A stretch of DNA of 64,000 nt, taken from assembly GCA_038064515.1 (NCBI GenBank), contig JBBTSY010000004.1, forward strand, positions 96,585-160,584, written 5' to 3'. This DNA comes from Patescibacteria group bacterium (GTDB lineage Bacteria; Patescibacteriota; Minisyncoccia; 2-02-FULL-40-12; GWA2-44-9). Positions 20,036 to 37,470 of this stretch are shown one piece after another. The translations under genes and the position numbers were made by a program. Positions within the stretch are counted from its first letter, which is position 1. Every line of letters begins with the position of its first letter. The notes beneath the pieces are model-generated. The model worked only from the letters and a program-made list of their open reading frames with translations. It was not told the DNA's origin and ran no database searches.

Positions 20036-21325
20036 ATGATGGATCGGTATAAGGAAGCTCTGCGTCAGCTTCTGCTCCGCCTACAGCAGTATACGAAGAC
20101 GGATATGATCTACCTCGCTCGAGGCGGTTTTTGGTCAACAGCTCCTTTTATCTTTAGTTCCGTCCTATCGATAGCCCTCGTCTGGGCTTTCGCGAATCTC
20201 CTTCCGAAAGATATTTATGGAACTTATAAATTCGTCATGTCTCTTTCTGGATCACTTAGCTTTCTCACTCTTACAGGAATTAATATCGCAGTTACTCAAG
20301 CTGCGGCGCGAGGCTACGAAGGAGTACTCCCTTATGCCCTTAAAATCCAATTGCGCTGGAATGTCCTTTTTACGATAGCAATGTTCGGAGTAGCTGGCTA
20401 CTATTTTATCCATAATAATGCGCTCATCGGCACTGCCGTATGCATTCTAGCGGTAACATTCCCTTTGACCACTTCTTTTAATACCTACGGCGCTTATCTT
20501 TTCGGAAAAAAACAATTCCGACAGATTGCAGGATATCAAATTTTTACCAGTTTTTTTTATATAGCCGCTATGGTGAGTATTCTCGCTGTTACCGACAATC
20601 TTTTATTCATTATCACCGTCTATGCTCTTGGTAGCCTTACCCCTCTCCTCTTTTTCTATTACCGCACTCTGCAATTAAGTGGTGAGCAGAGTCAGTTTTT
20701 AGCCGAACAAAAAGCTCAATTTCTAAACTATCTCAAGCACCTTAGTGTGATGAATATTTTCTCCACGCTTTCGCAATATGTAGATAAAATTGTTGTATTC
20801 CATTATTTAGGAGCTGTAGAACTGGCCGTATACGGAATTGCTTTAGCGATACCCGAGCGTATCCGCGGATATTTTAAAACCCTCACCGCATTAGTGATGC
20901 CGAAAGTTTCCGGAAAAGAGATTATAGACCTCCGAAAAACCTTCTATATGCGCTTATCCCAAGCTTTTCTCCTTGGGCTCTTAATAAGCATTTCTTATAT
21001 TATAGCTACTCCGCACATATTTAAACTCCTGTTACCTGCATACCCCGAGTCAGTTCGGTATTCGCAAGTAATTGCTCTTGTTTTTATTTTTTTGCTCCCG
21101 GGGACCTACATCGCAGAAATATTCCGTGCCCATGCTATGATTCGCGCCCTATACCTCAGTAGCGTCATCGCGCATATATCGAGGATTATTCTTTTCATCG
21201 CATTTGGAATTATGTGGGGAGTGTGGGGGGTCATTATTGCCTCCCTTACTGTTACCTTCGTGGGACTCTTCTGGAATATTCTCCTATGGGAGATCGAATC
21301 TCGTCGTCGGATCGCTACCTTTTAG
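20036..21325 (+). CDS. Second Wzx-like flippase / polysaccharide biosynthesis membrane protein.
   Basis: 429 aa multi-TM with a MOP-flippase-like layout, divergent from the previous gene. Confidence 0.5.
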   Translation: MMDRYKEALRQLLLRLQQYTKTDMIYLARGGFWSTAPFIFSSVLSIALVWAFANLLPKDIYGTYKFVMSLSGSLSFLTLTGINIAVTQAAARGYEGVLPYALKIQLRWNVLFTIAMFGVAGYYFIHNNALIGTAVCILAVTFPLTTSFNTYGAYLFGKKQFRQIAGYQIFTSFFYIAAMVSILAVTDNLLFIITVYALGSLTPLLFFYYRTLQLSGEQSQFLAEQKAQFLNYLKHLSVMNIFSTLSQYVDKIVVFHYLGAVELAVYGIALAIPERIRGYFKTLTALVMPKVSGKEIIDLRKTFYMRLSQAFLLGLLISISYIIATPHIFKLLLPAYPESVRYSQVIALVFIFLLPGTYIAEIFRAHAMIRALYLSSVIAHISRIILFIAFGIMWGVWGVIIASLTVTFVGLFWNILLWEIESRRRIATF

Positions 21326-22058
21326 GAATGAAAACAAAGAGTCCTTGAGCCGCAAGAGATGGCTGTATTCTCTTTAAGAATGGGATACCTTGGTATGCAA
21401 TAAGTTGATAGTTTTGATAATTTAATTGCGAGAGCCACCATCGCATATCCCTTAAAGTCCAAAAACGGACATGTTCAGAAGGATGAGCGCGCCATTGAAG
21501 CGGAAACTTTCCAAAGAGTAACCGCAACCGATGGGAAATAAAACCGGTGTTGGGCACCGAAAAAAAGACGCCTTTGCGGGCATTGCTGAAAGCCCAATTC
21601 AAGAGATCTTCTGAAGATGGGGTATGTTCGATTACTTCGAACAGAAAGATATAATCTACTGGGGGTAACAATTGCCGCTCGGCAAGCATAGAGATATCCG
21701 CATGGATTCCATTAATTCCATTCTCGCGGATCATGCGAAGGGCATCGTCAGAAATATCGACACCGATTAGATAACGCATCGGCTTCCGTTTATTAATGTC
21801 CAGTAGCACGGCGCCATTACCAGCACCGATATCCATTATTGAACTGCCTGCTTCCAAGTAACGCAAGGCGAGATTCGCTCGATCTTGTTGAAACTCATTT
21901 AAGCTTTTAGCCGATAACTTTCGTTCATGCCAATAGCGATTATATTTGGTATCATGCTCCCGAAGGGTCGGGTAGATGAACAGCGAAACCCAGAGCTGTT
22001 TGACCCAGTATAGTTTATCTTTAATTTTTTTGATGATTGACATGACTATTTTGAGCAA
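21315..22058 (-). CDS. Class I SAM-dependent methyltransferase.
   Basis: Motif I IMDIGAGNGAVLLDI. Confidence 0.6.
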   Translation of the reverse strand: MLKIVMSIIKKIKDKLYWVKQLWVSLFIYPTLREHDTKYNRYWHERKLSAKSLNEFQQDRANLALRYLEAGSSIMDIGAGNGAVLLDINKRKPMRYLIGVDISDDALRMIRENGINGIHADISMLAERQLLPPVDYIFLFEVIEHTPSSEDLLNWAFSNARKGVFFSVPNTGFISHRLRLLFGKFPLQWRAHPSEHVRFWTLRDMRWWLSQLNYQNYQLIAYQGIPFLKRIQPSLAAQGLFVFIPKR

Positions 22059-22941
22059 TTATGAATATATGATCCTGGCGCCCAAGGAGTGTAATGCCGG
22101 CAATAAGAATCCCTTTCAGGAGCTTCCGCAGAATACTCTCTGGAGTTGTCTTATCCGTGCTCAAAGTATGTGATTTCATGACGAGCCGCTTGCGTTTCAA
22201 ACTGGGACCCCAAAAATAGTGTAAAAGCTTCCGAATATTTAAATCATTGAGTTCGTAGTTTCGCTTACGTATACATATAATTGAAAATCCGAGTTGCGTA
22301 AGCATTGAAGATATCCCTTGGTCAGAGAAGTAAAAAAGATGTTCCAGGGCAATAAACTTCCAGGCTGGCCCGTCTTTGCGGGCAAGGTAGCTATTGAAGT
22401 TCGGCACTTCAATGCATAATAACCCGTTGGTGTTGAGACGGTGACGAATCTCGTGAAGCAATGCTATGGGATTAGAAATATGCTCAAGAACATGGAAGAT
22501 CGTAATCACATCAAAAGTTTTCCCTTCCGACAGGTTCTGAAGAGTGCCTTGGACAACCGAGATTCCCCGCTCCTGTGCCCAAGCAACAGCAGATGTGTTC
22601 AGCTCAATCCCAAGGGCATCGAAGCCGGATAACTGCGCCTCTCGGACAAAGAACCCCGTATGGGCGCCTATATCCAAAAGTGTTTTGTGCCAGGGTTGCA
22701 CATGATGCCGGATAATCTTTAGAATTTCTCGGGCATTATCGCGGATATTTTTCAGACGATAGGGCTGCAAAAGCACGCCGGCATAATTTTCCGCTCTCTG
22801 ATAATATGATTCCGGCTGATACGGAATAATTTCCGGAGTCAAAAACCCCGTCAAACACTTTCGACACTGGAGGATTTCAGGCATTTCCGAAAAAGCTGGT
22901 TTTATCACATTGCTTCCGCAGATTTTACAGATCGTACTCAT
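22021..22941 (-). CDS. SAM-dependent methyltransferase with an N-terminal Cys4 zinc-ribbon.
   Basis: CKICGSN…CRKC, then LLDIGAHTGFFV motif I. Confidence 0.6.
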   Translation of the reverse strand: MSTICKICGSNVIKPAFSEMPEILQCRKCLTGFLTPEIIPYQPESYYQRAENYAGVLLQPYRLKNIRDNAREILKIIRHHVQPWHKTLLDIGAHTGFFVREAQLSGFDALGIELNTSAVAWAQERGISVVQGTLQNLSEGKTFDVITIFHVLEHISNPIALLHEIRHRLNTNGLLCIEVPNFNSYLARKDGPAWKFIALEHLFYFSDQGISSMLTQLGFSIICIRKRNYELNDLNIRKLLHYFWGPSLKRKRLVMKSHTLSTDKTTPESILRKLLKGILIAGITLLGRQDHIFIIAQNSHVNHQKN

Positions 22942-23882
22942 CGATAAGCAATCATGAGAGACATTTCTTTTCGGAACGCAACGACCGGATGAGCAAAGAT
23001 GCGGTTTGTCGGCTCAAGAATAAACTTGTGATTAAAGCGTGGTCCAGGAAGTATTGGATTTATGATTCGCTGTAGAGTAATCGGTAGAACCGCAAGAACA
23101 TTCTTTACCAGATGCGCCACACCGGATCCAACTGGCCGATCAAGGTATGCGTAGTAAAACTGGGAGAAGCCGGCACGCTCAAACGCTGCTCTCCAATCCT
23201 TGAGCCGATACTCGCGCTCGCCGTTCATGCGCCGCGTCAGCGGTTGATCAGGAGGTAAACCGAACTGCCGTTTGTAGTCCGCCGGATACTCGATATCAAG
23301 AAGTTCATTCAGGCCCTCCTGGGTATATCGATCTGGTCGTGCTTTATCAAGACAGAGCACAAAACCTCCTGGCTTGAGAACACGACCTAACTCTTTGAGC
23401 GTCACGTCAATATTTGATGAATGGTGTAACGAAAAAAAATCAAAAACAAAATCAACTGAGGCATCCGCCAATTGGATATCATCGAAACTACCGATTGCAC
23501 CGATAACTTTATCAGTATGATCGCCAAGAACATGACTGATAATTTTTGGCGCTAAATACTCGACAATCGGTTGGCAAATCTCAACACCATATATTTTCTC
23601 TACCGCTGGTCGGCGAGCAAGAATCGAACTGAACGTCAGAGAACCGGCTCCAACCTCGAGACCAATACCCTCAAGCAATTTCTTTAAGAAGTGCCGCTCT
23701 ATGTACGTAAAAAGTTCCTCGATGTCTTTAACCGTAATGTTGGGCACAACTCCATCAAACGTCAGCTCCCGGATGATGCTCATAGGCTCACTGTTTTTTA
23801 GATTTAAAGCAAACTTTGTCCGGTAGTTCTGTTCCGCTTCGCGCTTTAATTCAGGATCAATTGGCCAGTGTTCAATCTGCAT
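22938..23882 (-). CDS. SAM-dependent methyltransferase.
   Basis: GLEVGAGSLTFSSIL motif I and a …VLKPGGFVL motif. Confidence 0.55.
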   Translation of the reverse strand: MQIEHWPIDPELKREAEQNYRTKFALNLKNSEPMSIIRELTFDGVVPNITVKDIEELFTYIERHFLKKLLEGIGLEVGAGSLTFSSILARRPAVEKIYGVEICQPIVEYLAPKIISHVLGDHTDKVIGAIGSFDDIQLADASVDFVFDFFSLHHSSNIDVTLKELGRVLKPGGFVLCLDKARPDRYTQEGLNELLDIEYPADYKRQFGLPPDQPLTRRMNGEREYRLKDWRAAFERAGFSQFYYAYLDRPVGSGVAHLVKNVLAVLPITLQRIINPILPGPRFNHKFILEPTNRIFAHPVVAFRKEMSLMIAYR

Positions 23883-23993: not shown

Positions 23994-25007
23994 CTATACT
24001 TTTCGCAATTTTTCCCGAATGGGAATTTCTGAAGGCAATACCCGTTTTATGCCGTCCCCGTGAGCTTTTTCCATAATTCGTACGTCACGAATGAGTTGAG
24101 CAAATTCTTGTGGCTCAAGACTCGCCGATTGATCGGTGCCAAACATCTTTTTATCGAGCGTGATATGTCGCTCGATCATGTGTGCACCGACATTTGCGGC
24201 AGCCAGCGTCGGAATTAATCCCTTTTCGTGGCCGCTATACCCGATAGGAACCGTTGGAAATTCCTGTCGCATTTTTGTAATAACTCGAATGTTTAATTCG
24301 CTGTCTTCGGAGGGATAAGTTGAAACTGTGTGTAAGAGGATGAGGTTTTGAGTCCCTAAGACTTCTACGGCCTTTGAAACTTCTCCGCTAGTGCTCATGC
24401 CGGTTGACAAGATAACAGGTTTACCCGTTGCACGTGCTTTGCGAAGAAGATCATGATCGGTAAGATTCGCGGACGCAATTTTGCAGCAAGGCACGTTGAG
24501 CCGTTCAAGAACATCAACACTCTCCAAATCCCACGGAGAAGCAAATGCAAGCAATCCTTTCGATTTTGCATAATCAAACAAACCGCGATACTCAGCCTCC
24601 GTAAACTCAAGTGCCCATTTTAAGTCGCCGTTGGTACTGTCTTTAAAATCAGATTTCTGAAGACGTACTACGGCCTCCGGCGACAATACGCCACGATTTA
24701 TAGCATTCTCGAGTACTGTTCGATCTACAGCACGCGGCTTGGCGAGTTCTTCTGGCAAATATACGACTGGCACCGTGCGCTTTTGAAATTTTACCGCTTG
24801 AGCTCCGGCTTCAGATGCGGCATCAATGAGTCTCTTCGCAATCTCAATGCTCCCATTGTGATTGATCCCGATTTCTGCGACAAAAAAACAAGGGCGACTT
24901 CTCCCAATCGGAATGCTGGCGATAAAGACATCTTGAGTTGTTGGGGCGGGCCTCCCCAGGATAAACCGTACAAGTCGAGCCCCAAAATTTCTTGGTATCT
25001 TGATCAT
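23994..25007 (-). CDS. NeuB-family nonulosonic-acid (sialic / legionaminic / pseudaminic / Kdn-type) synthase, TIM-barrel part only. There is no obvious C-terminal antifreeze-like (SAF) domain.
   Basis: CFFVAEIGINHNGSIEIAKRLIDAASEAGAQAVKFQKR, …ASPWDLESVDVLERLNVPCCKIAS…, …PIGYSGHEKG…. Confidence 0.75.
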   Translation of the reverse strand: MIKIPRNFGARLVRFILGRPAPTTQDVFIASIPIGRSRPCFFVAEIGINHNGSIEIAKRLIDAASEAGAQAVKFQKRTVPVVYLPEELAKPRAVDRTVLENAINRGVLSPEAVVRLQKSDFKDSTNGDLKWALEFTEAEYRGLFDYAKSKGLLAFASPWDLESVDVLERLNVPCCKIASANLTDHDLLRKARATGKPVILSTGMSTSGEVSKAVEVLGTQNLILLHTVSTYPSEDSELNIRVITKMRQEFPTVPIGYSGHEKGLIPTLAAANVGAHMIERHITLDKKMFGTDQSASLEPQEFAQLIRDVRIMEKAHGDGIKRVLPSEIPIREKLRKV

Positions 25008-25028: not shown

Positions 25029-25907
25029 CTATATGACTGTCCAGCCACCATCCACCAGTAGATTGTGCCCCGTTACATAACTAGAAGCATCGGAAGCTAA
25101 GAAGATCAGGGGCCCAACAAGTTCATGTACTTTCCCACAGCGACTAAGCACCATCTTTTTTGCGAGACTGGGTAAGAACCCATCATCATATTCCTTCCCC
25201 GCCTTATGATGTCCTTCTTTCAGATTCGGAATAGCACCAGGTGAGAGCGCGTTAACTCGAACCGGAGCCAAAAAAGAGGCGCTGTAGCGAGTCCAGTGTA
25301 GGAGTCCCGCTTTTACGACACTGTACGCAGGTGGATTTATAGAGTGTTTGAATCCTTCATAGGTGGTAGGGCTTGGAGCTATCACACCTAATGAAGAGGT
25401 GATATTGATAATTGATCCTCCGCCTCGCTCTTTCATGGCAAGGCCAAATTTCTTTGTCGATTGAACTGCCCACCAGATTCCAGCCTCAAATGCATTCCTG
25501 AATTCGTCATGAGTAGCACTTTTGATTGTCTCGCGTCTCCTAAGATAAAAACCTGTTTGAGAACCAAACACAAACGCATTATTGATAAGAATATCAACCT
25601 GGTGTTCCTTGAGAATTTTAGTGTAGACCTTATCTGTCGCTTTCTCATCAAAGAGATTAACTTCATGCCAAAAAGTTCTGCCCGGGTATTCTCCCTTAAA
25701 CGAATCCCGTACCTCATAACCAACCTCTGGTTTTTCGATAACAATTACTCTTGCTCCAGAGTCCAAAAGCCCGCGCACAAACTCTTTGCCAAAGTATCCC
25801 GCTCCACCCGTAATGAGAGCAGTTTTCCCAGCCAAAGAGAAAAGGGACGGCCCTGCATTTTGCACCTTATGAGTACGTGTTTTATTTTTTCTCATCTTTC
25901 TCTTCAT
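25029..25907 (-). CDS. Short-chain dehydrogenase/reductase (SDR) family oxidoreductase.
   Basis: TALITGGAGYFGKEF Rossmann motif. Confidence 0.65.
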   Translation of the reverse strand: MKRKMRKNKTRTHKVQNAGPSLFSLAGKTALITGGAGYFGKEFVRGLLDSGARVIVIEKPEVGYEVRDSFKGEYPGRTFWHEVNLFDEKATDKVYTKILKEHQVDILINNAFVFGSQTGFYLRRRETIKSATHDEFRNAFEAGIWWAVQSTKKFGLAMKERGGGSIINITSSLGVIAPSPTTYEGFKHSINPPAYSVVKAGLLHWTRYSASFLAPVRVNALSPGAIPNLKEGHHKAGKEYDDGFLPSLAKKMVLSRCGKVHELVGPLIFLASDASSYVTGHNLLVDGGWTVI

Positions 25908-25919
25908 AATATCCGTTTA

Positions 25920-26507
25920 TTATCGAATCTTATTCTGACTAGCTTTGGCTCGAACAATCAAGTCACAGACTTCCCGAACCGCTCCATCCCCACCTTTCTG
26001 TCTGGTAACATAGTCGGCTACTTTTTTTGCTTCTGTAGCACCGTCAGCCACACAAGCCGAGACACCGACAATTTTCATAATATCAACATCATTCGTACTG
26101 TCACCGACAAAACATATATCTTTTAAATTCGTTTTAGGGCAATTCTCTTTCAGCCATTCTTTTAGTCCAGCAACTTTATCTTTGTTTTGGACCAAAGGTA
26201 CACCTAATTTCCAAGCCCGAGCCTGAACATAACCACTTCGTTGCGTAGTTAAAATAAGAACTGAAATTCCCTCTTTTCGCACCAGGTCTATACCTTGCCC
26301 GTCTTGATGGGAAAATCTTGCGGACTCAAAAACATAAACAAAATCACGGCCGGTGTGTTGGCTAGCTACTTCCTTGGTCATAATCACGCCCGTATCAAGA
26401 TATAGGGGAGTTAAAACTCCATCACAATCAAGGGCAAGAACCCTAATTTGCTTGAATTTTTGAAGTAATTTTGCAGAAATATTCATATACTCCTGTACCC
26501 CTGTCAC
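25920..26507 (-). CDS. KdsC/YrbI-family HAD phosphatase; candidate nonulosonate-9-phosphate (or Kdo-8-P-like) phosphatase.
   Basis: VLALDCDGVLTP (HAD motif I). Length and layout are KdsC-like. Confidence 0.65.
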   Translation of the reverse strand: MTGVQEYMNISAKLLQKFKQIRVLALDCDGVLTPLYLDTGVIMTKEVASQHTGRDFVYVFESARFSHQDGQGIDLVRKEGISVLILTTQRSGYVQARAWKLGVPLVQNKDKVAGLKEWLKENCPKTNLKDICFVGDSTNDVDIMKIVGVSACVADGATEAKKVADYVTRQKGGDGAVREVCDLIVRAKASQNKIR

Positions 26508-26553
26508 TGTATCAAGATTCCCAAAGAATGTGAATACTTAGTATAGTCACGAA

Positions 26554-26582
26554 TTGACAAAAGTCAAGTTTTCCGGTACATT
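26554..26582 (+). promoter_or_regulatory. Candidate sigma70-type promoter, TTGACA-17 nt-TACATT, upstream of the radical-SAM gene. An AAGGAG Shine-Dalgarno lies 6 nt before its ATG.
   Basis: Hexamers and spacing read directly from the sequence. Confidence 0.35.
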
Positions 26583-26660
26583 ATCCGGTGTGAACATTGA
26601 CAACAGAGATCCACAAACTTCATACGGCGTACTGCGCAATCTAACAGAAAAGGAGACCAC

Positions 26661-28403
26661 ATGGGTATCGCACTGCCCGTTCGTGACACTGCAACGGGTG
26701 CCCATGTGCACCCTGCAGACGTGATCAAGGGCATCACCTATCGCGACCTGAAAGGCGCTCGGGTGGTGTTCATCAATATGCCCCTGCGAGAGACAGCTCG
26801 ACCAAACACCACGCCAGAAGGCCCGTTGCTCATGGCAACCAACCTCCGACGAAACTGCGGCGTTGATGCCACCATCGTAGATCTTAACGCGTACCGCATC
26901 TGCGACGAGGTTGCCACGACGCGTGGCCTGAAGTGGGGTCGCCACCTGACACACGCGGAAACGTTTGGGCTCATCCAGCGCCACATTCGCCACCACGGCG
27001 AGCCTGATGTAGTCGCTCTGTCTGGCAAGATTACCACTCTAAAGTGGCAGGAAGAGATCGTGAGAATTATCCGGCGACTCTTGCCCAACGTGTTTCTGGT
27101 ATCCGGCGGCGGGCTGGCAACCGAACTGAAGACAGGGTTGTTCAGCTACATCCCAGGGTTAGACGGCGTTGCGCATTCCGAAGGCGACGATGTGATCATC
27201 AAGATCGTCTATGACGGTTTAACCATCAAGCGATACGGCATCGAATCGGCGCTGAACAGCGGGAAGCTCCAGCCGTATTACATCAGTAAGATCAACGGCC
27301 GGCACCGTTTCCTGTATGCGGGCGATCGGCCGCATAACCTGAATGCGTTACCTCACGCTGATCTGGAACTTCTGCGCGAGGACGTAGACGGCAACCCCAT
27401 CCTGGATTGGTATTTGAATGTACCGGCCTGGAGCGCCACAGCCAACAATTCGTCGGCCGCTCCATGGAGAGATGAGGATGTCGTGCCTAAGACGACATCA
27501 GTCTCCAGCCGCGGATGTCCATACCATTGCTTCTACTGCTTCCGCAAGACGCAGGGCGAACAACTGTGGGGAGTGCGTTCGGCAGAGCACATCATGCGAG
27601 AGCTTCATGAGCACATTGAGCGCTATGGCATCAAGTTTCATGGTTTCCCCGATGACAACTTTGCGGTAACTCTGGGCAGGATCAAGGATTTGAACAGCTT
27701 GGTTGCCTGGGGAACCCACACCCGTCTGGATGAAGTCGCGGGCCTGAACAAGATCACCAAAGGCACCGCCGAGGTCATGGCCAAGGCCGGCTGCAAGTAT
27801 ATTGGCTTCGGCCCCGAGAGCGCAAGCGCAAAAGTCCTGGAGGCAATCGGTAAGGGCGGCCACACGTTGAGCAACGGCTTCACTGCCGTTACCGTGGATG
27901 GTCAACCGCACGAGTTCCCGCGCTCCATGATCTTGGGCATCCAGAATGCTGCCCGCGTGGGTATCCACGGCAACTGCACCTGGATCGTCGGCTCACCTAC
28001 CGAAACGCTCCAAGACGTCAAGGAGAGCGTGCTGTTCATGCTCTGGCAGACGGAGTTCTACGCCCGGTTCGGCGCCAGCTCGAAATCGGTCAATACTCGG
28101 ATGTTCACCATGACCTGGTACCCAGGCGTCACCCTGATCAACCATCCCAAGGTCCGTTCGGAGCTCGCGCGCATCTTCGGCCTGACGTTCCAAGAGCTTC
28201 TGGTTAAAATTCCGGGTAAGGAACACTGGGAGCCGATCATAGATGAGAACTTCTACCGATATCTGCGCGAGCTGGACGATGCCACCAAGGTACTGGAGAA
28301 GAACGGTGAACCCCTCAACTTCGGCAACATGCCAACTGACACGTTCCTCAAAGTCCGCGAGCTGATCGACTCCGACCGCACACTGGACATCCTTTCGCTG
28401 TAA
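26661..28403 (+). CDS. B12-binding radical-SAM enzyme (class B radical SAM, probable C-methyltransferase type). It lies in a GC-rich island.
   Basis: N-terminal cobalamin-binding-like domain. SRGCPYHCFYCF has the CxxxCxxC motif. GC content is strikingly higher than the surrounding genes. Confidence 0.7.
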   Translation: MGIALPVRDTATGAHVHPADVIKGITYRDLKGARVVFINMPLRETARPNTTPEGPLLMATNLRRNCGVDATIVDLNAYRICDEVATTRGLKWGRHLTHAETFGLIQRHIRHHGEPDVVALSGKITTLKWQEEIVRIIRRLLPNVFLVSGGGLATELKTGLFSYIPGLDGVAHSEGDDVIIKIVYDGLTIKRYGIESALNSGKLQPYYISKINGRHRFLYAGDRPHNLNALPHADLELLREDVDGNPILDWYLNVPAWSATANNSSAAPWRDEDVVPKTTSVSSRGCPYHCFYCFRKTQGEQLWGVRSAEHIMRELHEHIERYGIKFHGFPDDNFAVTLGRIKDLNSLVAWGTHTRLDEVAGLNKITKGTAEVMAKAGCKYIGFGPESASAKVLEAIGKGGHTLSNGFTAVTVDGQPHEFPRSMILGIQNAARVGIHGNCTWIVGSPTETLQDVKESVLFMLWQTEFYARFGASSKSVNTRMFTMTWYPGVTLINHPKVRSELARIFGLTFQELLVKIPGKEHWEPIIDENFYRYLRELDDATKVLEKNGEPLNFGNMPTDTFLKVRELIDSDRTLDILSL

Positions 28404-28427
28404 CCAGTCCCCCTCGTTCCCACCCCC

Positions 28428-28458
28428 GCCCGCCGGCACACCACCGGCGGGCTTTTTT
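28428..28458 (+). terminator. Rho-independent terminator, gcccgccgg-cacacca-ccggcgggc followed by TTTTTT. Can act bidirectionally for the convergent gene pair.
   Basis: 9-bp GC stem plus T-tract, 25 nt after the stop codon. Confidence 0.7.
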
Positions 28459-29083
28459 ATTCAAAAGTAAGCTTGAGCGGATCGATGCCCTTGGCTTCAA
28501 GGATAAAGTTGGCGAGGTCGCGAAATGCTCCAGAACCACCTTCGCGCTCAGAAACAAAGTGAGCAATATTGCGAATAACCTTTTCTGCCTGCGCGGGTGC
28601 CGCACGGAGCGCAACTTTTTGGAGTAACGGCACATCCAAAATGTCATCAGCCATGTACGCACACACATCAAACGATTTACCAATGGTCTTGAGCCACTCT
28701 TCAGCCGTATGAACTTTTTTCACACCCCCCACACCCATGTAAAGCGTCACTGGCCTCCAGCCGGGGCCCATCTTCTTACTCCGGGAAGAGGGGGATGAGT
28801 TCCATTTTTTCACCATATCAATGATCGAACGAGCTCGAGGGCCATGCTCATTCGTAATCAAGCAAATAGGAATACCGATACTGCGAAGTAAATGAAGTCC
28901 TTGTCCATCATAGTAACTACGGAATTTGGGCTTGTACGGCGTGCCCTCAAGGACACGATTGTCGTTGAAAACTCCATCAACATTAGAAATTACCACCTCA
29001 ATACGCCCGGCCAAGGCGTAGAGTTCTTTATTACTAATACTTTTTATCTTCATATTCTTTTTCATAGTACCTAATGTAGACAA
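28457..29083 (-). CDS. Second KdsC-like HAD phosphatase.
   Basis: VVISNVDGVFND motif I, …CLITNEHGP…. Confidence 0.55.
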   Translation of the reverse strand: MSTLGTMKKNMKIKSISNKELYALAGRIEVVISNVDGVFNDNRVLEGTPYKPKFRSYYDGQGLHLLRSIGIPICLITNEHGPRARSIIDMVKKWNSSPSSRSKKMGPGWRPVTLYMGVGGVKKVHTAEEWLKTIGKSFDVCAYMADDILDVPLLQKVALRAAPAQAEKVIRNIAHFVSEREGGSGAFRDLANFILEAKGIDPLKLTFE

Positions 29084-29132
29084 TTATTGAAACGGCCGGG
29101 TCATACGGACCCGGCCAGACCCTTGAGTTGGG

Positions 29133-29804
29133 TCAAGTACAACTGTGCCAAATCGTGCCGTAAGAACTGGTTTGCCGGCAGGTGCCCGTCCCGAGATGTA
29201 TCGTTGGATCTCCAGCAGGTTGGTCGCTGTGCCCTTCCCAGACTCGTCCGAGGTGTCCACGTACAACGACTGCCCCGGACCAGGAAGCTCGAAACTGAAG
29301 GTCGAAGATGTTGGTGCCAGTCACATTTCCTTTCGCCCGGACTTCCGCCATTCGCTTCTTGATACGCCGCTCCAAGGTTGTGGCGTTACAGAAGAACGTA
29401 ACGACTCTGAGCGAAGTCAGAAAGTCGGGACACTCTTGACCCTTGCCGCGCAACTCCTGAGCCATGCTCATCAGGTGCAGGTGAGCGTCAGTGACCGCAC
29501 CCGTTAGTGGTCGCCAGTGGTCCAGGACGGTTTTGATGACCATCTCCAGCATCACTGGCTTGCGTTCGACAACCAGAATCCGTTTGATCTCCAACCACAC
29601 CGCCTCCTGGAACAGACGGATTACCGGCTGAGTCACCGGCCCGTCCCCCAACATCTTGCCTCGGAAAGAATCCGCGGAGACGGGAGCGAAGTCGGCCAGG
29701 GCGTGCTGGGCCTGGAGCAGGGAAATGTAGTGCGATTTCCCTGCGTAGGAAAGTCCGGACATCACGGCAACCGGCAGGTTCTGCACTACGGACATAGACA
29801 CCAC
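29133..29804 (-). CDS. GC-rich ORF encoding a P-loop (Walker A) NTPase / kinase-like protein. Its boundaries are uncertain.
   Basis: AVMSGLSYAGKSHY fits the GxxxxGKS pattern. High-GC codon usage matches the radical-SAM gene. It is followed by a GC hairpin (ggccgggtc-atac-ggacccggcc) at 29093-29116. Confidence 0.35.
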   Translation of the reverse strand: MVSMSVVQNLPVAVMSGLSYAGKSHYISLLQAQHALADFAPVSADSFRGKMLGDGPVTQPVIRLFQEAVWLEIKRILVVERKPVMLEMVIKTVLDHWRPLTGAVTDAHLHLMSMAQELRGKGQECPDFLTSLRVVTFFCNATTLERRIKKRMAEVRAKGNVTGTNIFDLQFRASWSGAVVVRGHLGRVWEGHSDQPAGDPTIHLGTGTCRQTSSYGTIWHSCT

Positions 29805-29874
29805 CTCTCACAAGATACAGGTTAAAGGAACAAAATACTATACCACACTGTTATTTTATTGCAACCTCGCGCAG

Positions 29875-30192
29875 TTGCTAAAAGTCTGGTTTTTTGGTCT
29901 AATAACTTCAATCATGCATGTTACTACTGTTTTCAATTGGCTATCTATCGCCGCACTGGGATTTATGAGCTGGGGCATCATAGGTCAGTGGCTCAAGATA
30001 CGCCACCGTACAAGCATTGAGGAGATAAGCCTCCGAGAAGTCACCATTCGCTGGACGGTTACCGTAGTGCTCTTGGTCAAGATCATCCTGGTGAAGGACC
30101 CCTACCTTATTGCAGGGCAGCTTTTACTCCTGGCCGGCATTTCACTCTACTTTGGTACGCTCGTCATTATCAAAAATCGCCATCATGAGTAA
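29875..30192 (+). CDS. Small hypothetical membrane protein (3 TM).
   Basis: The hydrophobic ORF overlaps the start of the next gene by 8 nt. Confidence 0.3.
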   Translation: MLKVWFFGLITSIMHVTTVFNWLSIAALGFMSWGIIGQWLKIRHRTSIEEISLREVTIRWTVTVVLLVKIILVKDPYLIAGQLLLLAGISLYFGTLVIIKNRHHE

Positions 30193-30919
30193 ACAAAAAA
30201 TAATCGCTGTTATCCCTGCCCGGGGCGGGTCAAAGAGTATTCCCCTGAAAAACATCAAAAAGTTCTGTGGCAAGCCGCTTATCGCCTGGTCTATTTTGGG
30301 TGCTAAGAAAAGCAAATATCTCGACCGGGTTATTGTCTCAACCGACAGTACTAAAATTGCCAAAGTCGCTAAAAAGTTTGGTGCTGAAGTGATTATCCGT
30401 CCTCCGGAACTCGCCATCGACACCATCGGCATTGAACCGACCCTGAAGCACGCCTACGAAACACTTTTAAAAGACGAGAAATATAAAGCCGATGGGCTTG
30501 TCTTACTTATGCCCACGTCGCCTACCCGCCAGACATTCCATATTGATGACGCAATTAAAATTTTCAAAGATAAAAAAGCAGACTCGGTTATTGCCGTTAA
30601 TGAAACTCCGGCGAATCATACTCCCTACTGGACGCTCGTACGCTCCAAAAGAGGCAAAGTAACATTGTGGGGAAATATACCTTTGAAAAAGATCCCTACC
30701 CGGCGACAAGATTTTCCTCAGCAGTGTTATGCCCGCAATGATCTTATTTATGTATTGAAGCCGAAAAACCTCTACGACAAAGAGATCCCGAATCTCTACG
30801 GAGATAAGGTAGAACTTATGATTATCCCTGACCCCGAAAAATACGAAGCCGATATCAATACGCCCGGCGAGTGGCACGAAGCCGAAATGAAATTAAGAAA
30901 ATTACTCAAGGAGCACTAG
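30185..30919 (+). CDS. CMP-nonulosonic-acid synthetase (acylneuraminate cytidylyltransferase, NeuA-type). Start taken as the ATG at 30185 (MSKQKIIAV…).
   Basis: IIAVIPARGGSKSIPLKNIKKFCGKPLIAWSI…DRVIVSTDS…FGAEVIIRPPELAIDT…LLMPTSPTR… closely matches CMP-NeuAc synthetase motifs rather than KdsB. Confidence 0.75.
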   Translation: MSKQKIIAVIPARGGSKSIPLKNIKKFCGKPLIAWSILGAKKSKYLDRVIVSTDSTKIAKVAKKFGAEVIIRPPELAIDTIGIEPTLKHAYETLLKDEKYKADGLVLLMPTSPTRQTFHIDDAIKIFKDKKADSVIAVNETPANHTPYWTLVRSKRGKVTLWGNIPLKKIPTRRQDFPQQCYARNDLIYVLKPKNLYDKEIPNLYGDKVELMIIPDPEKYEADINTPGEWHEAEMKLRKLLKEH

Positions 30920-30933
30920 AACCGCAGTACCTT

Positions 30934-32334
30934 TTAAAAAAACTTACCAATTCTTGGAAAAGGTAAATGCAAGCGATTTAAAATTATTTGAGCAATTCTC
31001 TTGCCCGCTTTCCCGTCGAGTTTATACATATGCCGCCCGATGGTCCTATGCCGCCCATCTTGATTGAGTTTCGGATTTTTTAAATATGCGTTTATCGCGG
31101 CAATCCATTCATCGGCGCTATACACCACTTTCGTACCTCCAAGCGCTACTAAACTGGCCAGACAATCCTCTTGATTGTAGCGTTTCACACTCTGAACGTA
31201 GGGTTTCTTTTCCCACCCGTCAAAGCTTATCAAAATTTGCGGTTTGTCGAATACGGTCGCATCCAAACCAAGCGACGTTGCTACATACATTACTATTTCG
31301 GAATAATATACGGAATTTCGAAGATGGTCATGCTCATCAGGACGAATCTCCGCACCTTTATAATCATCAGAACGAAGCTGGACGCCGGGAGTTTCAAAAA
31401 TAAACCTTGGATCATTATCGAATTTTGAGAAATCAGCAGGGTGATGAGGATGATTTCGAACAAGTATCTGCACATCCGGAAGATTTCCTGCATCCATTGC
31501 ATCTCTTAAAATCTGCGCGAGTTGCCAATCAGTATCCGAAAGGATGGAACCCGCTGGAGCAAATAAGAGCAACTTCTTTGAAGGGTCCGCACCAATATAA
31601 GCAAAAAACTCCTCACGCGAGAGGGTGGGACCCTCAAGCCACGTATCAAATTGAGGCAACCCTACAACCTGGATTTGTTCAGCATTGCAATCGTGCAGTT
31701 CAATGAGTTCTTCCTTTACCTTTGGACTTGGGCTTAGTATACTCGCGGGAATGACTCGAAGAACACCTTTTGTGGTTGTATTGTCCCAAGAACGAACCAT
31801 CCCAATAAGCGGAATGTTATTCTTGTGGGCTTCTCTATTAAAAAGAACATCTTGTTCACCAAAGATATCCGTAGAAAAGAAAACATACGGATTATATTTC
31901 TTGATAAATGGTTCAAAGATATTTCCAGGCGCAAAGACACTATTGAACCATCGATACAGCGTGCGTGAATAGGGCAAAGAACTTAGAATGGAGGCTGATA
32001 TCTTTAGTCTTTGATAGTTTAAGAACCCAAAAATCGTTTTATTGTTATAAAAATATTCCGCTCGCTGATCTCGAACATATTGAGTATTTTCAAGGAGAAA
32101 TGCGAGGCGATACCAGAATTTACTTTTTGAAGTACGGATAATCGGATCTAGGTCAAATCCCTCAATAATAACATTGGGGCCACCATAATATTTCTCGAAT
32201 AGTTCTTTTTTACTAGGAGGGGCAAAAATAATAATTCTCAAATCAGAATTTGCCCTCAAAATCTTCAATACATCGGTATTGAGAATATTTCGCGCAATAA
32301 AACCATGATAGGCGGTAATAAATAATGTTTTCAT
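30934..32334 (-). CDS. Putative GT-B-fold transferase (TagF/KpsS-like glycosyl- or glycerophospho-transferase). Specific function unknown.
   Basis: 466 aa with …KKLLLFAPAGSI… and …ILVRNHPHHP… motifs. Family assignment is tentative. Confidence 0.3.
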   Translation of the reverse strand: MKTLFITAYHGFIARNILNTDVLKILRANSDLRIIIFAPPSKKELFEKYYGGPNVIIEGFDLDPIIRTSKSKFWYRLAFLLENTQYVRDQRAEYFYNNKTIFGFLNYQRLKISASILSSLPYSRTLYRWFNSVFAPGNIFEPFIKKYNPYVFFSTDIFGEQDVLFNREAHKNNIPLIGMVRSWDNTTTKGVLRVIPASILSPSPKVKEELIELHDCNAEQIQVVGLPQFDTWLEGPTLSREEFFAYIGADPSKKLLLFAPAGSILSDTDWQLAQILRDAMDAGNLPDVQILVRNHPHHPADFSKFDNDPRFIFETPGVQLRSDDYKGAEIRPDEHDHLRNSVYYSEIVMYVATSLGLDATVFDKPQILISFDGWEKKPYVQSVKRYNQEDCLASLVALGGTKVVYSADEWIAAINAYLKNPKLNQDGRHRTIGRHMYKLDGKAGKRIAQIILNRLHLPFPRIGKFF

Positions 32335-33383
32335 TTTAATTTTGCATAGACCTCCAGGTAAGATTGTATCGCCTTACTCATAGTATGTTTTTTTGCCCAT
32401 TCATAGCTTGCATTGCTATATCTTTTCCATAGATCCATGTCCCCAACTAGCTTAAGCAATGCATCGGTGGTGGCTGATATATCGTTTTGTGGAACCAAAA
32501 GACCATTATACCCATCTTTTACAGCGTCCTCAATCCCATTTCCAAGTGTACCTATCACCGGCAATCCGGCCGCGGCTACTTCAAGAAAAACTAAACCAAA
32601 TCCCTCAAAATGATAGCCCTCGTTAATGGATGTCAGAAGAAATATAACAGCTTTTCGATAAAGCTCCTTTAGTTCTTCGTCCGAAATATTTTCCTTAAAG
32701 ATAACTCTTCCCTCGCCATCGTTTGTCTTGATAATATTTTTCAGTCGATGCATATATGCTTGATCCCTCTGGCTACCCACAATGACATATTGAAGATGCG
32801 GCAACTGCTTATACGCCTCTAAAAATGCCGGGATCGAGATATGATATCCTTTTCGAGCTTTTATAGCTCCCACGCTTAGTACGAGAGATCCTGACTGTGC
32901 TTCATGTGTTTGCCTAAACTTCTCCAGATTGATTCCGGGGTTAATAACTTTTGTTCGCAAAGTAGGAATAACTTTCAAAAGTTCTTGCTGCGTGAACTTA
33001 CTTATAGCAACGACGAAATCTGCCTTGTTTAAAGCCCATCGACTTATCCATTTCGTCTTCCAATGGTAAAGAGGCGCTATAGAATAGGTGCCTAGTGCTG
33101 TCAGAACAAATTTCTTATGTTCTGAATTTGCCAACGCAACGATCATCCCTGATTGGTTAAGATCTAGGGCGTGAATAATGTCGTATTTGGCCAGAAGAGG
33201 CCTCAAGCGCCATGCAGATTGAAATAATCGCCATCCTCGACTAAGTATACGAATTCCACTTTCATCTTCAGTATAGACGACTGTTTCATGTCCCGCCGCC
33301 TGAACCCCAGAAATTAAATCAGAGGCATATCTGCCCCACCCAGATTTTGGATTTATCGTGGATGTTAAATAGGCTATCTTCAT
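32331..33383 (-). CDS. GT4 (GT-B) glycosyltransferase.
   Basis: EGFGLVFLEVAAAGLPVIGT (E-x7-E motif region). Confidence 0.7.
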   Translation of the reverse strand: MKIAYLTSTINPKSGWGRYASDLISGVQAAGHETVVYTEDESGIRILSRGWRLFQSAWRLRPLLAKYDIIHALDLNQSGMIVALANSEHKKFVLTALGTYSIAPLYHWKTKWISRWALNKADFVVAISKFTQQELLKVIPTLRTKVINPGINLEKFRQTHEAQSGSLVLSVGAIKARKGYHISIPAFLEAYKQLPHLQYVIVGSQRDQAYMHRLKNIIKTNDGEGRVIFKENISDEELKELYRKAVIFLLTSINEGYHFEGFGLVFLEVAAAGLPVIGTLGNGIEDAVKDGYNGLLVPQNDISATTDALLKLVGDMDLWKRYSNASYEWAKKHTMSKAIQSYLEVYAKLK

Positions 33384-35542: not shown

Positions 35543-36562
35543 TCAATTAAAAGAATTTTTTAAAATTTCCTTAGCTCTATCTCTTATTGTGTGTTCGGAT
35601 AAAACTTTATTATAGCCATTTCTGGTTATTCTTTCCCTTTCCTCGCGATTGTGTAAGTAATGCTCCACTAAGCTAGATAGCTCCGTTGCATTATGGAAAT
35701 AGACTATATCCTCTCTATCTAAAAATAACTCGGCTAATCCTTCTTTGTAGTCGCTTACGACCATGGCTCCGGAAATCATCGCCTCAAAACTTCTTAGATT
35801 TGGTCCTTGAGTTAGATCGTCTTTAACATGAATATTTACAACAATTTTACTTTTTTTATATATATCAAGCATCGCCTGGCCACGAATCTGTCCCTGGTAA
35901 AATTCCTTCAAAGAACTATCAGCCCATTCGGGAGTACCCCAAATTTTCAAATTGAAATTCTTAATCTCGGCAAGTACTTCCTCTCTTTCATGGTGACTAG
36001 CCAAGGTTCCTATAAAGGCTATATCGTGCTCCTTGTTTTCTAGAATATCTCGAATTGACTGACTATCCGACTTAAAGGCAGCCATCGGAAGGTAACAAAT
36101 ATTTTTAAACCCTTCCGATTCTAAGGCCTTCTTTGAATTATGGTCCATGACAAAGAATTGGTCATAATGCGAAGCAAATCTTTTTAATGTTCCAATATTC
36201 CACATTCCGTCAGGAAACCAGTTCACTGCTTTTACTCCATTGCGCCTAATTTCATCAACAGTTCGTACGGAAAGATGTTTACCTTTGATCACTACAAATA
36301 AATCTGGCTTGGAATTTTTTATGATTTTTAAGACTTTTGACTGCAATTTGGCTCTAGCTAATTTTATTAAACTTCCCAACAAAAAGGAGGCTAGATAATT
36401 ATTTACAAATTTTTGCGGTATTTGGTAAGGAATTTTAATATTAAATAAAGAATAGTATGTAAATAGAACTTCCGCATGATGACCTAAACTTTTAAAAGCA
36501 TCGGCGAGCGGCTTAGAAATTGCTTGCTCTTTAGTATCGTGAGTGGCAATTATAATTTTCAT
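35543..36562 (-). CDS. CgeB-family (DUF3880 / Glyco_trans_1_2-like) protein.
   Basis: C-terminus …VYFHNATELSSLVEHYLHNREERERITRNGYNKVLSEHTIRDRAKEIL is typical of CgeB-like proteins. Confidence 0.5.
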   Translation of the reverse strand: MKIIIATHDTKEQAISKPLADAFKSLGHHAEVLFTYYSLFNIKIPYQIPQKFVNNYLASFLLGSLIKLARAKLQSKVLKIIKNSKPDLFVVIKGKHLSVRTVDEIRRNGVKAVNWFPDGMWNIGTLKRFASHYDQFFVMDHNSKKALESEGFKNICYLPMAAFKSDSQSIRDILENKEHDIAFIGTLASHHEREEVLAEIKNFNLKIWGTPEWADSSLKEFYQGQIRGQAMLDIYKKSKIVVNIHVKDDLTQGPNLRSFEAMISGAMVVSDYKEGLAELFLDREDIVYFHNATELSSLVEHYLHNREERERITRNGYNKVLSEHTIRDRAKEILKNSFN

Positions 36563-37470
36563 TTAATAATTTTGCTTAATACTTGCCTCGCCTCTGTTTC
36601 CCAAGATGGCATTTCATATCCTAAGGCTATGGCTTTTTGTACGTTAAGCCACATCTGCTTAGGCCGCCGAGCTATGTGGCCCGCAGAAGTTTCATCAACT
36701 GATATCTCGGTCACTTCGCCAGAAAAATGCGGGAAATGATTCCGTATCACACCCCATACTTCCGCCTTATTAACTACATTAAAACTTCCCAAGTGGATAA
36801 TACCGGGCCTGAAATTTCTTAGAAAATCAATAACAAGGTAACTGAAAGTCTTAGCGCTGATCGGATTAATAACTACATCGTTAAAAAGCGTAAAAGACCT
36901 ATTTTCGGCGGCAGCCCTCACAAACCACTGCACAAAACTGGGATGAGCTCCCTTGGGCCGAATACCAATAGGGTTTGCCCGAATAATAAGACCTTTTTTA
37001 TAGTTCAGCACCTCCTGTTCGGCTAGAATTTTGGTTTCACCATAGTAGTTTAGCGCTTGAGGTATATCTTCCTCTCGATAGTCACCGGTATCTCCAGAGA
37101 ACACCATGGGTGTAGATACATAGAGCAGAGGAGTATCGTATCGCTGGGCAAGCATTACTATATTCTTCGTTCCATCAACATTAATCCGATAGCATTCATC
37201 TCTGTTGAGCTCGCAGTAATTCACATCAGTAACGGCAGCACAGTGAATGATAGCGCTTATATTTTTATATTTATTTCTTACTTGCTCGACAGATTTAGAT
37301 GAAGAAATATCCAATTTCAGCCTTTCTATTCCTGGATTTAAAAGTTCTGGGTTAGAATTATAGGTCCCAATAATATTAAACTCCTCGCCTTTCAAGACTT
37401 TGCATAATTCAAATCCAAGCATCCCCGATGCTCCTGTAACCAAAATGGTTTTAGTGCGATTTTCGATCAT
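36559..37470 (-). CDS. NAD(P)-dependent sugar epimerase/reductase, RmlD-like (dTDP-4-dehydrorhamnose reductase family).
   Basis: ILVTGASGMLGFEL Rossmann motif; length and layout are RmlD-like. Confidence 0.6.
   Translation of the reverse strand: MIENRTKTILVTGASGMLGFELCKVLKGEEFNIIGTYNSNPELLNPGIERLKLDISSSKSVEQVRNKYKNISAIIHCAAVTDVNYCELNRDECYRINVDGTKNIVMLAQRYDTPLLYVSTPMVFSGDTGDYREEDIPQALNYYGETKILAEQEVLNYKKGLIIRANPIGIRPKGAHPSFVQWFVRAAAENRSFTLFNDVVINPISAKTFSYLVIDFLRNFRPGIIHLGSFNVVNKAEVWGVIRNHFPHFSGEVTEISVDETSAGHIARRPKQMWLNVQKAIALGYEMPSWETEARQVLSKIIK

Follow-up and report, generated by a model that had tools for sequence, protein, structure and literature searches.

In the Kdn- or vertebrate-type route to ulosonic acids, an ulosonate-9-phosphate synthase condenses a sugar 6-phosphate with phosphoenolpyruvate (PEP), a HAD phosphatase removes the phosphate group, and a CMP-synthetase activates the product; the Kdn-9-phosphate (Kdn-9-P) synthase and phosphatase of Bacteroides thetaiotaomicron are examples of such enzymes. 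AprD4 is a radical SAM 1,2-diol dehydratase that, paired with the reductase AprD3, brings about the C3'-deoxygenation of paromamine (PDB 6fd2). GenK and GenD1 are cobalamin-dependent class B radical SAM enzymes that C-methylate sugars in gentamicin biosynthesis (PMC4039129, PMC4340712, PMC5819394; reviewed in PMC9204698). Here, a stretch of 64,000 nucleotides from a Patescibacteria group bacterium (assembly GCA_038064515.1, contig JBBTSY010000004.1, positions 96,585 to 160,584), referred to as the window, was analysed with a focus on positions 26.5 to 29.9 kb. This GC-rich region encodes a class-B-type radical SAM enzyme (rSAM; 580 residues, 26661-28403, + strand), which was identified by means of Pfam, NCBIfam, an AlphaFold model, and synteny, and it lies between genes of the NeuB and NeuA type. 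A first-pass annotation had interpreted the region as a horizontally acquired cassette for sugar modification. Our results indicate that it probably comprises two parts, transcribed separately, of a pathway that is conserved in Patescibacteria and leads to a Kdn-type ulosonic acid resembling sialic acid. The composition of the region is odd, gene-specific, and recurrent, and its genes are probably native, conserved parts of this pathway and not an import from a distant phylum.

The locus resembles the Kdn route in that it clusters a NeuB-family synthase, a HAD phosphatase of the KdsC/Kdn-9-P-phosphatase type, and a CTP_transf_3 cytidylyltransferase, with no NeuC-, PseB-, or LegB-type genes beside them. 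In contrast to the known route, all three enzymes score below the NCBIfam equivalog cut-offs, the NeuB-family synthase has no SAF domain, and the locus additionally contains the class-B-type rSAM, a short-chain dehydrogenase/reductase (SDR), and three class-I methyltransferases dependent on S-adenosylmethionine (SAM). With GenK and GenD1, the rSAM shares the CxxxCxxC core, putatively combined with a B12-like Rossmann domain, as well as a sugar-modifying setting near ordinary SAM methyltransferases. However, no close sequence relationship to these enzymes is detectable, the candidate substrate is an ulosonic acid of primary metabolism and not an aminoglycoside, and cobalamin use is putative. 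AprD4 has 17% identity to the rSAM, which is 126 residues longer (580 versus 454), possesses a distinct C-terminal domain, and stands in another pathway context. No paper on a radical SAM enzyme in nonulosonic or ulosonic acid biosynthesis was found in the searchable literature. To this extent, the earlier statement that a trio of kinase, phosphatase, and B12-dependent rSAM is undescribed holds true, but the three genes do not constitute a fixed trio.

Homologues of the rSAM are numerous; at least 754 were detected at E <= 1e-3 (8,000 candidates scored). A record of the identical protein is assigned to a metagenome-assembled genome (MAG) of Patescibacteria, and the named sequences among the best 120 matches listed (55-87% identity) originate from Patescibacteria, Yanofskybacteria, and Parcubacteria, plus one labelled only 'bacterium'. 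For the analysis of synteny, one genome per species was scanned, which gave 78 rSAM loci including the window. Most of these belong to Patescibacteria, with an rSAM identity of 53-74% to the window; the others, at 37-52%, are from Roseibium, Polyangiaceae, Planctomycetota, Acidobacteriota, Nitrospirae, and DPANN archaea. In the 77 loci other than the window, the rSAM gene is no more than 10 kb away from NeuB in 49 cases, from NeuA in 41, from a KdsC-like HAD in 37, and from an SDR in 33 cases; an SDR homologue lies within this distance in 31 of the 50 Patescibacteria loci. If only loci flanked by 8 kb or more in both directions are considered, NeuB, NeuA, or HAD is present in 25 of 26 Patescibacteria and in 15 of 19 other loci. 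The order NeuB<SDR<HAD< >rSAM >NeuA is found in two related loci (L083 and L084), and its frame is common to L002, L005, and L010. Compared to L083 and L084, the window contains an extra HAD gene (HAD2), a P-loop gene, and a small membrane open reading frame (ORF) between rSAM and NeuA. The proteins of L083 and the window are identical to 83% for NeuB, 81% for rSAM, 67% for the first HAD (HAD1), and 62% for the SDR; the value for NeuA, taken from L084, is 70%. The rSAM gene thus occupies the slot between HAD and NeuA that is usual for its family, which makes it a core resident of the module and not an insertion. The same position in related loci speaks against the acquisition that the first-pass annotation had proposed, whereas the assignment to sugar tailoring gains from the tight synteny with NeuB, KdsC-like HAD, SDR, and NeuA in dozens of genomes. 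Moreover, the rSAM family is not found together with enzymes acting on tRNA or rRNA, a grouping that had been named as weakening a role in glycan tailoring.

The module is also found outside of the Patescibacteria. In Roseibium sp. TrichSKD4, it comprises NeuB, a HAD, two methyltransferases, rSAM, a CTP_transf_3 gene, and a TPR protein. Two DPANN contigs, L022 from a Nanoarchaeota MAG and L064 from a Woesearchaeota MAG, encode an rSAM with 48-52% identity that has NeuB and HAD as neighbours, and in L022 also an SDR; these archaeal loci make the module common to bacterial and archaeal lineages of ultra-small episymbionts. A relative of the rSAM with 42-48% identity is further encoded by 27 IMG/VR contigs that are classed as viral (L093-L119, 25-203 kb), where it adjoins genes for NeuB, SDR, CTP_transf_3, aminotransferases, and sulfotransferases. 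A tblastn search of the 50,697 deposited phage genomes of INPHARED yielded no match in isolated phages. One homologue of 919 residues (P0077), to which the query matches over 50% of its length only, contains a LAGLIDADG_3 domain (PF14528), which is probably due to an intein insertion in the rSAM.

The GC jump that had first drawn attention to the region is real, as a sliding-window recalculation showed that GC is not uniform across the window. In segments of 500 bp, the GC content rises from 0.40-0.44 to 0.54-0.59 at approximately 26.6-28.7 kb, dips to 0.49, and reaches a second peak of 0.53-0.58 at 29.0-29.8 kb. Outside of this island the window has a GC content of 0.446, with a standard deviation of 0.037 and a maximum of 0.524 for segments of the same size. 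The GC steps coincide with gene boundaries. For the rSAM gene, GC is 0.571 and the GC content at third codon positions (GC3) is 0.714 (z = 4.7); for the P-loop gene, the corresponding values are 0.579 and 0.679 (z = 4.1). The GC3 of the 51 other ORFs of the window is 0.441 +/- 0.059 with a maximum of 0.573, and that of the NeuB gene is 0.42. The GC-normalised dinucleotide distance is 153 for rSAM and 209 for the P-loop gene, as compared to 66 +/- 25 and 92 +/- 30, respectively, for background segments (of equal length in the case of rSAM). HAD2 (28457-29083, - strand), which is located between the two outlier genes, is host-like with a GC of 0.463, a GC3 of 0.469, and a typical dinucleotide distance (delta*) of 62. 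Atypical composition of the kind seen in genomic islands is therefore a property of the rSAM and P-loop genes and not of HAD2, and the notion of one continuous GC-rich island applies to the former two only. Amino acid composition as the sole cause was rejected, because GC at codon positions 1 and 2 of the window rSAM is raised by only 0.06 and GC3 by 0.31. The window also contains low-GC outliers, namely a peptidase C39-like ORF at 9576-10088 (GC 0.34) and a Glyco_trans_1_2 gene at 35543-36562 (GC 0.35); as these deviate in the opposite direction, the window is compositionally mosaic both ways.

Abrupt GC steps might also arise from an assembly or binning chimera, in which a GC-rich fragment of another organism was stitched into the contig. 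However, four contigs from other runs or assemblies match the window at 99.96-100% identity over 25836-33294: L001 (Logan, SRR32696710; window 25836-29735), L087 (Logan, SRR32696712; 28249-33294), L089 (Logan, SRR32696710; 29712-32057), and L088 (ENA, Hain_H41; 30159-32822). The contigs for the right junction were found via a NeuA look-up. Since the junctions at approximately 26.5 and 29.9 kb are both covered by independent contigs, and since orthologous loci of other species keep gene order and GC contrast, the probability of a chimera is negligible, and the earlier worry about both junctions is dispelled to the extent that these contigs permit.

The regulatory elements likewise argue for two units. 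A promoter TTGACA-17-TACATT (26554-26582, + strand, 10 of 12 consensus positions) drives rSAM, and a divergent promoter TTGACT-16-TATACT (26567-26540, - strand, 10 of 12 positions) faces the genes of HAD1, SDR, and NeuB. As read from the sequence, a Shine-Dalgarno motif AAGGAG (26650-26655, + strand) precedes the ATG of rSAM by 5 nt. A hairpin of nine GC pairs followed by a T-run (28428-28459) separates rSAM from the convergent HAD2, whose stop codon (28457-28459) overlaps the T-run. The promoter, Shine-Dalgarno motif, and terminator described in the first-pass annotation are thus all present, but they serve the rSAM gene on the + strand only and not the whole island. The P-loop gene and HAD2 form a separate operon on the - strand, convergent with rSAM, and two overlapping promoter-like sites, TTAGCA-17-TAAAAT and TTGCAA-16-TATAGT, the latter with TG in front, are located 5' of the P-loop gene (29837-29881, - strand; 9 of 12 positions each). 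Due to the opposite strands and the native-looking gene in the middle, the island consists of two transcription units and is no single cassette. A search with Rfam for RNA elements or a riboswitch in the island gave chance-level matches only.

These data bear on the proposal that a single tailoring cassette of kinase, phosphatase, and B12-dependent rSAM was acquired from a high-GC phylum, for example Actinobacteria or Proteobacteria. The high GC content and the canonical form of promoter and terminator are compatible with such an origin, as is the fact that Roseibium, Polyangiaceae, and Planctomycetota possess homologues of rSAM, but the latter homologues share 37-50% identity with the window rSAM, as compared to 55-87% in Patescibacteria, and no named best homologue points to the suggested donors. 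The arrangement in two units on opposite strands, the native composition of HAD2, and the conserved slot of rSAM are equally at odds with this scenario. With a classical genomic island, the region shares the atypical GC, GC3, and dinucleotides and the sharp boundaries; it differs in that the anomaly affects two genes around a native-looking one, recurs in orthologues, and includes a gene in a conserved syntenic position. Around the island, no flanking repeats of at least 20 nt were found, no tRNA target adjoins it (the only tRNA of the window is at 1087-1160), and the Pfam scans turned up no integrase, transposase, or other mobility domain. Of the hallmarks of a genomic island, the region displays the composition, and it displays neither mobility elements, nor absence of rSAM from the syntenic position in relatives, nor best homologues in a distant taxon. 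Acquisition of one cassette from a distant high-GC phylum is accordingly very improbable.

The compositional anomaly is not confined to the window. The four nearest relatives, at 76-87% identity, have rSAM genes with a GC of 0.54-0.60 and a GC3 of 0.61-0.78, and the GC3 of their flanking genes is approximately 0.3-0.6. In both the window and the L083 lineage, GC3 is 0.68-0.72 for rSAM and 0.41-0.42 for NeuB; the number of synonymous substitutions per site (dS) between the two is 1.2-1.3 for rSAM, and the neighbouring genes are saturated. Across the Patescibacteria, 43 of 47 loci have an rSAM gene whose GC3 is above the median of the ORFs around it (mean difference +0.114; p = 3e-9 by sign test), and a regression on the GC3 of the flanks gives a slope of 1.05, an intercept of +0.09, and r = 0.77. 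The offset is +0.012 in 22 non-Patescibacteria loci. Control families from the same loci, that is HAD, NeuA (same strand), SDR, and glycosyltransferases, show a shift of approximately zero; NeuB is shifted by +0.076 and three P-loop homologues by +0.16. The shift consists in a replacement of T by C: at two-fold pyrimidine-ending codons of rSAM, C/(C+T) is higher by 0.18, with a rise seen in 45 of 47 Patescibacteria loci, and at four-fold sites C changes by +0.07 and T by -0.06 with G and A unchanged. A family-wide shift of this kind is what selection for NNC codons produces, and it differs from what is expected of foreign high-GC DNA or strand skew. Strand or replication skew was rejected as a cause, because NeuA on the same strand is unshifted and because a T-to-C change with unaltered G and A is not symmetric. 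In the window, the AhpC gene shows mild enrichment of C at third positions only.

Several observations weigh against the view that rSAM is an old resident with a selected codon bias. The GC3 excess of the window rSAM (+0.31) is far above the mean offset of the family, and its purine-ending codons are shifted from A to G as well, with G/(G+A) being 0.70 versus 0.39 +/- 0.07. Together with this shift, the aberrant dinucleotide signature looks foreign and would not be predicted from codon selection alone. Part of the family-wide offset may reflect the use of AT-rich glycan genes instead of genome averages for comparison, and the window contains no genes for ribosomal proteins or EF-Tu from which the optimal codons of the genome could be derived. 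A dS of 1.2-1.3 leaves room for a remnant that is not yet ameliorated if the GC3 of the donor was very high. Finally, across loci, the pairwise identities of rSAM show only a weak correlation with the corresponding values for NeuB, NeuA, and SDR (rho approximately 0.1), from which it follows that the genes of the locus move independently and are reshuffled among Patescibacteria.

As a rival reading, rSAM and the P-loop gene, but not HAD2, may have been introduced by homologous recombination from a GC-richer Patescibacterium before the split of the window and L083 lineages, in which case their GC would be a foreign signature that is not yet ameliorated. The z-scores of 4.7 and 4.1, the outlying dinucleotides, the shifted purine-ending codons, the coincidence of GC steps with gene boundaries, and the mosaic identities of the locus would all be accounted for by such an allele replacement within the phylum. 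In addition, the nearest alleles, L080 (87%) and L082 (84%), are on contigs with a GC content of approximately 0.53, and rSAM surpasses NeuB in its synonymous identity to L083 (0.43 versus 0.32, as determined for conserved four-fold codons). In contrast, the contrast in composition is seen in all four nearest relatives at a dS of at least 1.2, and close alleles of background composition are absent from all sampled genomes. Random donors would give offsets of both signs, whereas 43 of the 47 Patescibacteria loci share a positive one, with a slope of approximately 1, and the family-wide shift is restricted to C for T. Allele replacement as the explanation is therefore considered unlikely, albeit far less so than an origin in a distant phylum.

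It is plausible to assume that the bias has two layers, under the preferred reading of rSAM as a native gene. The first would be a preference for C-ending pyrimidine codons in rSAM, and more weakly in NeuB, across the Patescibacteria. As the bias tracks the GC content of the host at a constant offset, this layer looks preserved; one possible cause is selection on the codon use of an enzyme that is strongly expressed and highly conserved. The second layer would be an additional general GC surplus in the clade of the window, which may go back to alleles exchanged long ago with Patescibacteria of somewhat higher GC content; contigs of the L080/L082 type have a GC content of approximately 0.53. 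The two layers are not separable with the present data, and the clade of the window is an extreme case.

The rSAM protein consists of a putative N-terminal B12-binding-like Rossmann domain, a CxxxCxxC core, and a C-terminal domain that is specific for the family. It carries the motif CPYHCFYC and matches Radical_SAM (PF04055) with E = 2.9e-14 and 54 bits (gathering score 29.5). In an alignment of 24 sequences with a mean column identity of 63%, the cluster cysteines C286, C290, and C293 show no variation, and neither do over 120 further columns. The AlphaFold model has a mean pLDDT of 87, and Foldseek matched it to TsrM, OxsB, TokK, AprD4, CysS, and MgmA. The cysteine motif, the Pfam score, and the confident fold match place the protein in the radical SAM superfamily. 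The cysteine motif named in the first-pass annotation is present, but the assignment to class B is tentative, as the Pfam match to the B12-binding domain (26.2 bits) stays below the gathering threshold of 32.1. The best NCBIfam matches are all class-B enzymes (BchE, PhpK family, ApyD, HpnJ), far below their cut-offs. A profile search detected the B12 domain of TokK with E = 9.5e-9 and AprD4 with E = 7e-4; the identity to the best solved relatives TokK, TsrM, and CysS is 12-19%.

While the fold class is clear, two candidate chemistries fit these data, a cobalamin(Cbl)-dependent C-methylation and a diol dehydration as in AprD4. Our best guess, made with less than even confidence, is that rSAM would catalyze the cobalamin-dependent methylation of an unactivated carbon. 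Alternatively, rSAM could be a cobalamin-independent 1,2-diol dehydratase that acts with the neighbouring SDR to deoxygenate the sugar acid or a precursor. AprD4 works together with the reductase AprD3, and an SDR accompanies rSAM in many IMG/VR loci as well as in 31 of the 50 loci of Patescibacteria. These bacteria are generally not known to synthesize cobalamin, neither a 4,6-dehydratase nor an aminotransferase of the Pse or Leg routes adjoins NeuB, and the profile match to AprD4 points in the same direction. On the other hand, the profiles favour relatives of the B12 type (the B12 domain of TokK; BchE, PhpK, and HpnJ in NCBIfam), and the Roseibium loci have no SDR near rSAM. A dehydratase of the AprD4 type is thus the less probable of the two candidates, and we regard it as rather doubtful.

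The second transcription unit begins with the P-loop gene (29084-29795, - strand; GC 0.58), which encodes a weakly AAA_33-like, kinase-like protein with the Walker A motif GLSYAGKS. The earlier identification of a P-loop kinase-like gene is correct with regard to this motif, but the reading frame is broken in the window. Owing to a deletion of 29 nt at 29294/29295, the frame changes beyond residue 166, and the listed ORF at 29133-29804 is the frameshifted reading, which matches the family only to approximately residue 166. If the frame is shifted back, the conserved C-terminal motif FExP...NTSDES of the family is restored. Contig L087 differs from the window only by 29 additional bases (L087 1047-1075) and encodes an intact P-loop protein of 246 residues that ends at 29084. 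As the deletion allele is present in the window and in L001 (SRR32696710) and the intact allele in L087 (SRR32696712), the population is polymorphic at this gene. The 220-residue product of the window has no exact record in the look-up. The P-loop protein scores 21.8 bits against PF13671 (AAA_33; gathering score 27), and the family gave only Walker-A-level matches to PDB profiles (E >= 0.01). The family is tiny: in a set of 1.84 billion proteins, 26 representative clusters reach E <= 1e-3.

HAD2 resembles KdsC and Kdn-9-P phosphatases (NCBIfam 65 and 72 bits, respectively), which agrees with its earlier designation as a second KdsC-like HAD, but its nucleophilic Asp is replaced. Motif I reads SNVDGV, with Asn34 (codon 28982-28984) at the position of the nucleophile. 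This sequence is identical in the window, L001, and L087, whereas all orthologues at other loci contain D[FVGC]DGV. Although the DxD signature of the nucleophile is lost, HAD2 keeps the HAD fold and the resemblance to its family. Judged by its sequence, HAD2 may be a dead or repurposed phosphatase. Two or three paralogous genes for KdsC-like HAD proteins are also present per cluster in L013 (6675-9831), L008, and L037.

Few loci contain the P-loop/HAD2 pair, the distribution of which is patchy. As a rare accessory, the P-loop gene is found in the same cluster in 3 of the 77 other loci (L008, L009, L013) and in L091. The homologue in L091, which is the closest one (49% identity), lies between NeuA and SDR-NeuB, next to rSAM. 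A further homologue of 433 residues, P0133, is a natural fusion of a P-loop domain and a KdsC-like HAD domain. This fusion, the setting in L091, and the clusters of L008, L009, and L013 link the P-loop gene to the ulosonic pathway. The accessory operon, with the P-loop gene preceding HAD2, would then provide an optional branch, in which the kinase supplies a sugar phosphate for a NeuB-type condensation and the paralogous HAD removes the phosphate. This functional assignment of kinase and phosphatase is speculative and of low confidence. Given the 29-nt deletion allele and the Asp-to-Asn exchange in HAD2, the accessory branch appears to be decaying in this population. In some related clusters, the P-loop gene is adjoined by a small membrane protein, which in L091 comprises 315 residues and is weakly EamA-like (E = 0.007); such a neighbour hints at an uptake of sugar that is coupled to its phosphorylation.

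Both units are embedded in a large glycan locus (14.9-47.5 kb) that encodes an initiating transferase, a Wzy-like protein, flippases, many GT4 enzymes, and an RmlD-like protein. The NeuB-family synthase (337 residues without a C-terminal SAF domain; 23994-25007, - strand) matches PF03102 with E = 1e-72 and has PDB entry 6ncs as its closest structure (E = 6e-43); its NCBIfam scores for NeuB (243 versus 400 bits) and PseI (208 versus 340 bits) are below the equivalog cut-offs. It is followed in the same operon direction by the genes of three class-I SAM methyltransferases (Pfam; 21315-23882, - strand), a trio that also follows NeuB in L090. Upstream of the synthase are a classical SDR (25029-25907, - strand; adh_short_C2, E = 7e-29) and HAD1 (25920-26507, - strand), a KdsC-type phosphatase with an intact LDCDGV motif I that keeps the nucleophilic Asp. 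HAD1 reaches 102 bits for KdsC and 74 bits for Kdn-9-P phosphatase, both below the NCBIfam cut-offs, and matches KdsC in the PDB with E = 1e-19. On the other side of the island, an ORF for a membrane protein of 92 residues (29914-30192, + strand) has a stop codon that overlaps the start of NeuA. It is also called as a gene in L087 and L089 and has homologues with 47-49% identity in L029, L050, and L082; it has no Pfam match and no family assignment. The NeuA-like CMP-ulosonic acid cytidylyltransferase (30185-30919, + strand) matches CTP_transf_3 (PF02348) with E = 8e-22 and PseF with 138 bits (NCBIfam cut-off 206). It is succeeded by the gene of a Glyphos_transf/BFO_1060-like transferase (466 residues, 30934-32334, - strand), whose assignment is weak (Pfam E = 4e-4, NCBIfam E = 7e-8) and which is kept beside NeuA in 22 of the 50 Patescibacteria loci. 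This protein is a candidate ulosonic-acid transferase.

A NeuB-family synthase and a CMP-activating cytidylyltransferase, as predicted from the sequences, identify the locus as an ulosonic-acid cluster. Pfam searches of the larger ORFs in 14.9-47.5 kb found no Epimerase_2 and no DegT aminotransferase, and near NeuB no upstream genes of the NeuC, PseB/C/H/G, or LegB/C type; the sole gene of the epimerase/dehydratase type among these ORFs is the RmlD-like reductase at 36559-37470, approximately 12 kb from NeuB. The missing upstream genes of the Neu5Ac, Pse, and Leg routes indicate a phosphosugar (Kdn-like) route. The combination of a KdsC-type phosphatase with a NeuB-type synthase suggests, in the light of established pathway knowledge, the same Kdn- or vertebrate-like route. 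In the proposed pathway, the NeuB-like synthase would condense PEP with a sugar phosphate, HAD1 would then remove the phosphate, the NeuA-like enzyme would activate the acid with CMP, and the Glyphos_transf-like transferase would put it onto a surface glycan. In between, the sugar would be tailored by the class-B-type rSAM, its frequent companion SDR, and the class-I methyltransferases.

Two further features of the window lie outside of the glycan locus or at its margin. The tRNA-Lys(UUU) at 1087-1160 adjoins a TrwB/HerA-like coupling-protein ATPase (1538-3106); this neighbourhood could be the remnant of a conjugative or type IV system. Large ORFs with no Pfam match are located at 51410-54790 (1126 residues; E <= 1e-3), 13070-14851 (593 residues), and 3113-4393 (426 residues; both E <= 1e-4).

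The value of the region consists in an enzyme family with a recurrent codon bias and not in an event of horizontal transfer. A gene that is a strong outlier in GC, GC3, and dinucleotides can be an old resident of its locus, and composition-based calls of horizontal transfer need to be accompanied by checks of synteny and of orthologues. We tentatively propose that the rSAM family performs an undescribed radical tailoring reaction, C-methylation or deoxygenation, in the Kdn-type pathway of many Patescibacteria, DPANN archaea, Roseibium, and IMG/VR contigs, that the product is a new surface sugar, and that the C3-richness of the gene is selected in Patescibacteria and mimics foreign DNA. Since the family is large, tightly syntenic, and present in cultivable Roseibium, its function is testable. 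Nonulosonic and ulosonic acids are key surface sugars, and rSAM would add a new enzymatic step to their synthesis. Patescibacteria and DPANN archaea live attached to hosts, and a conserved unusual surface sugar would be relevant to attachment and evasion.

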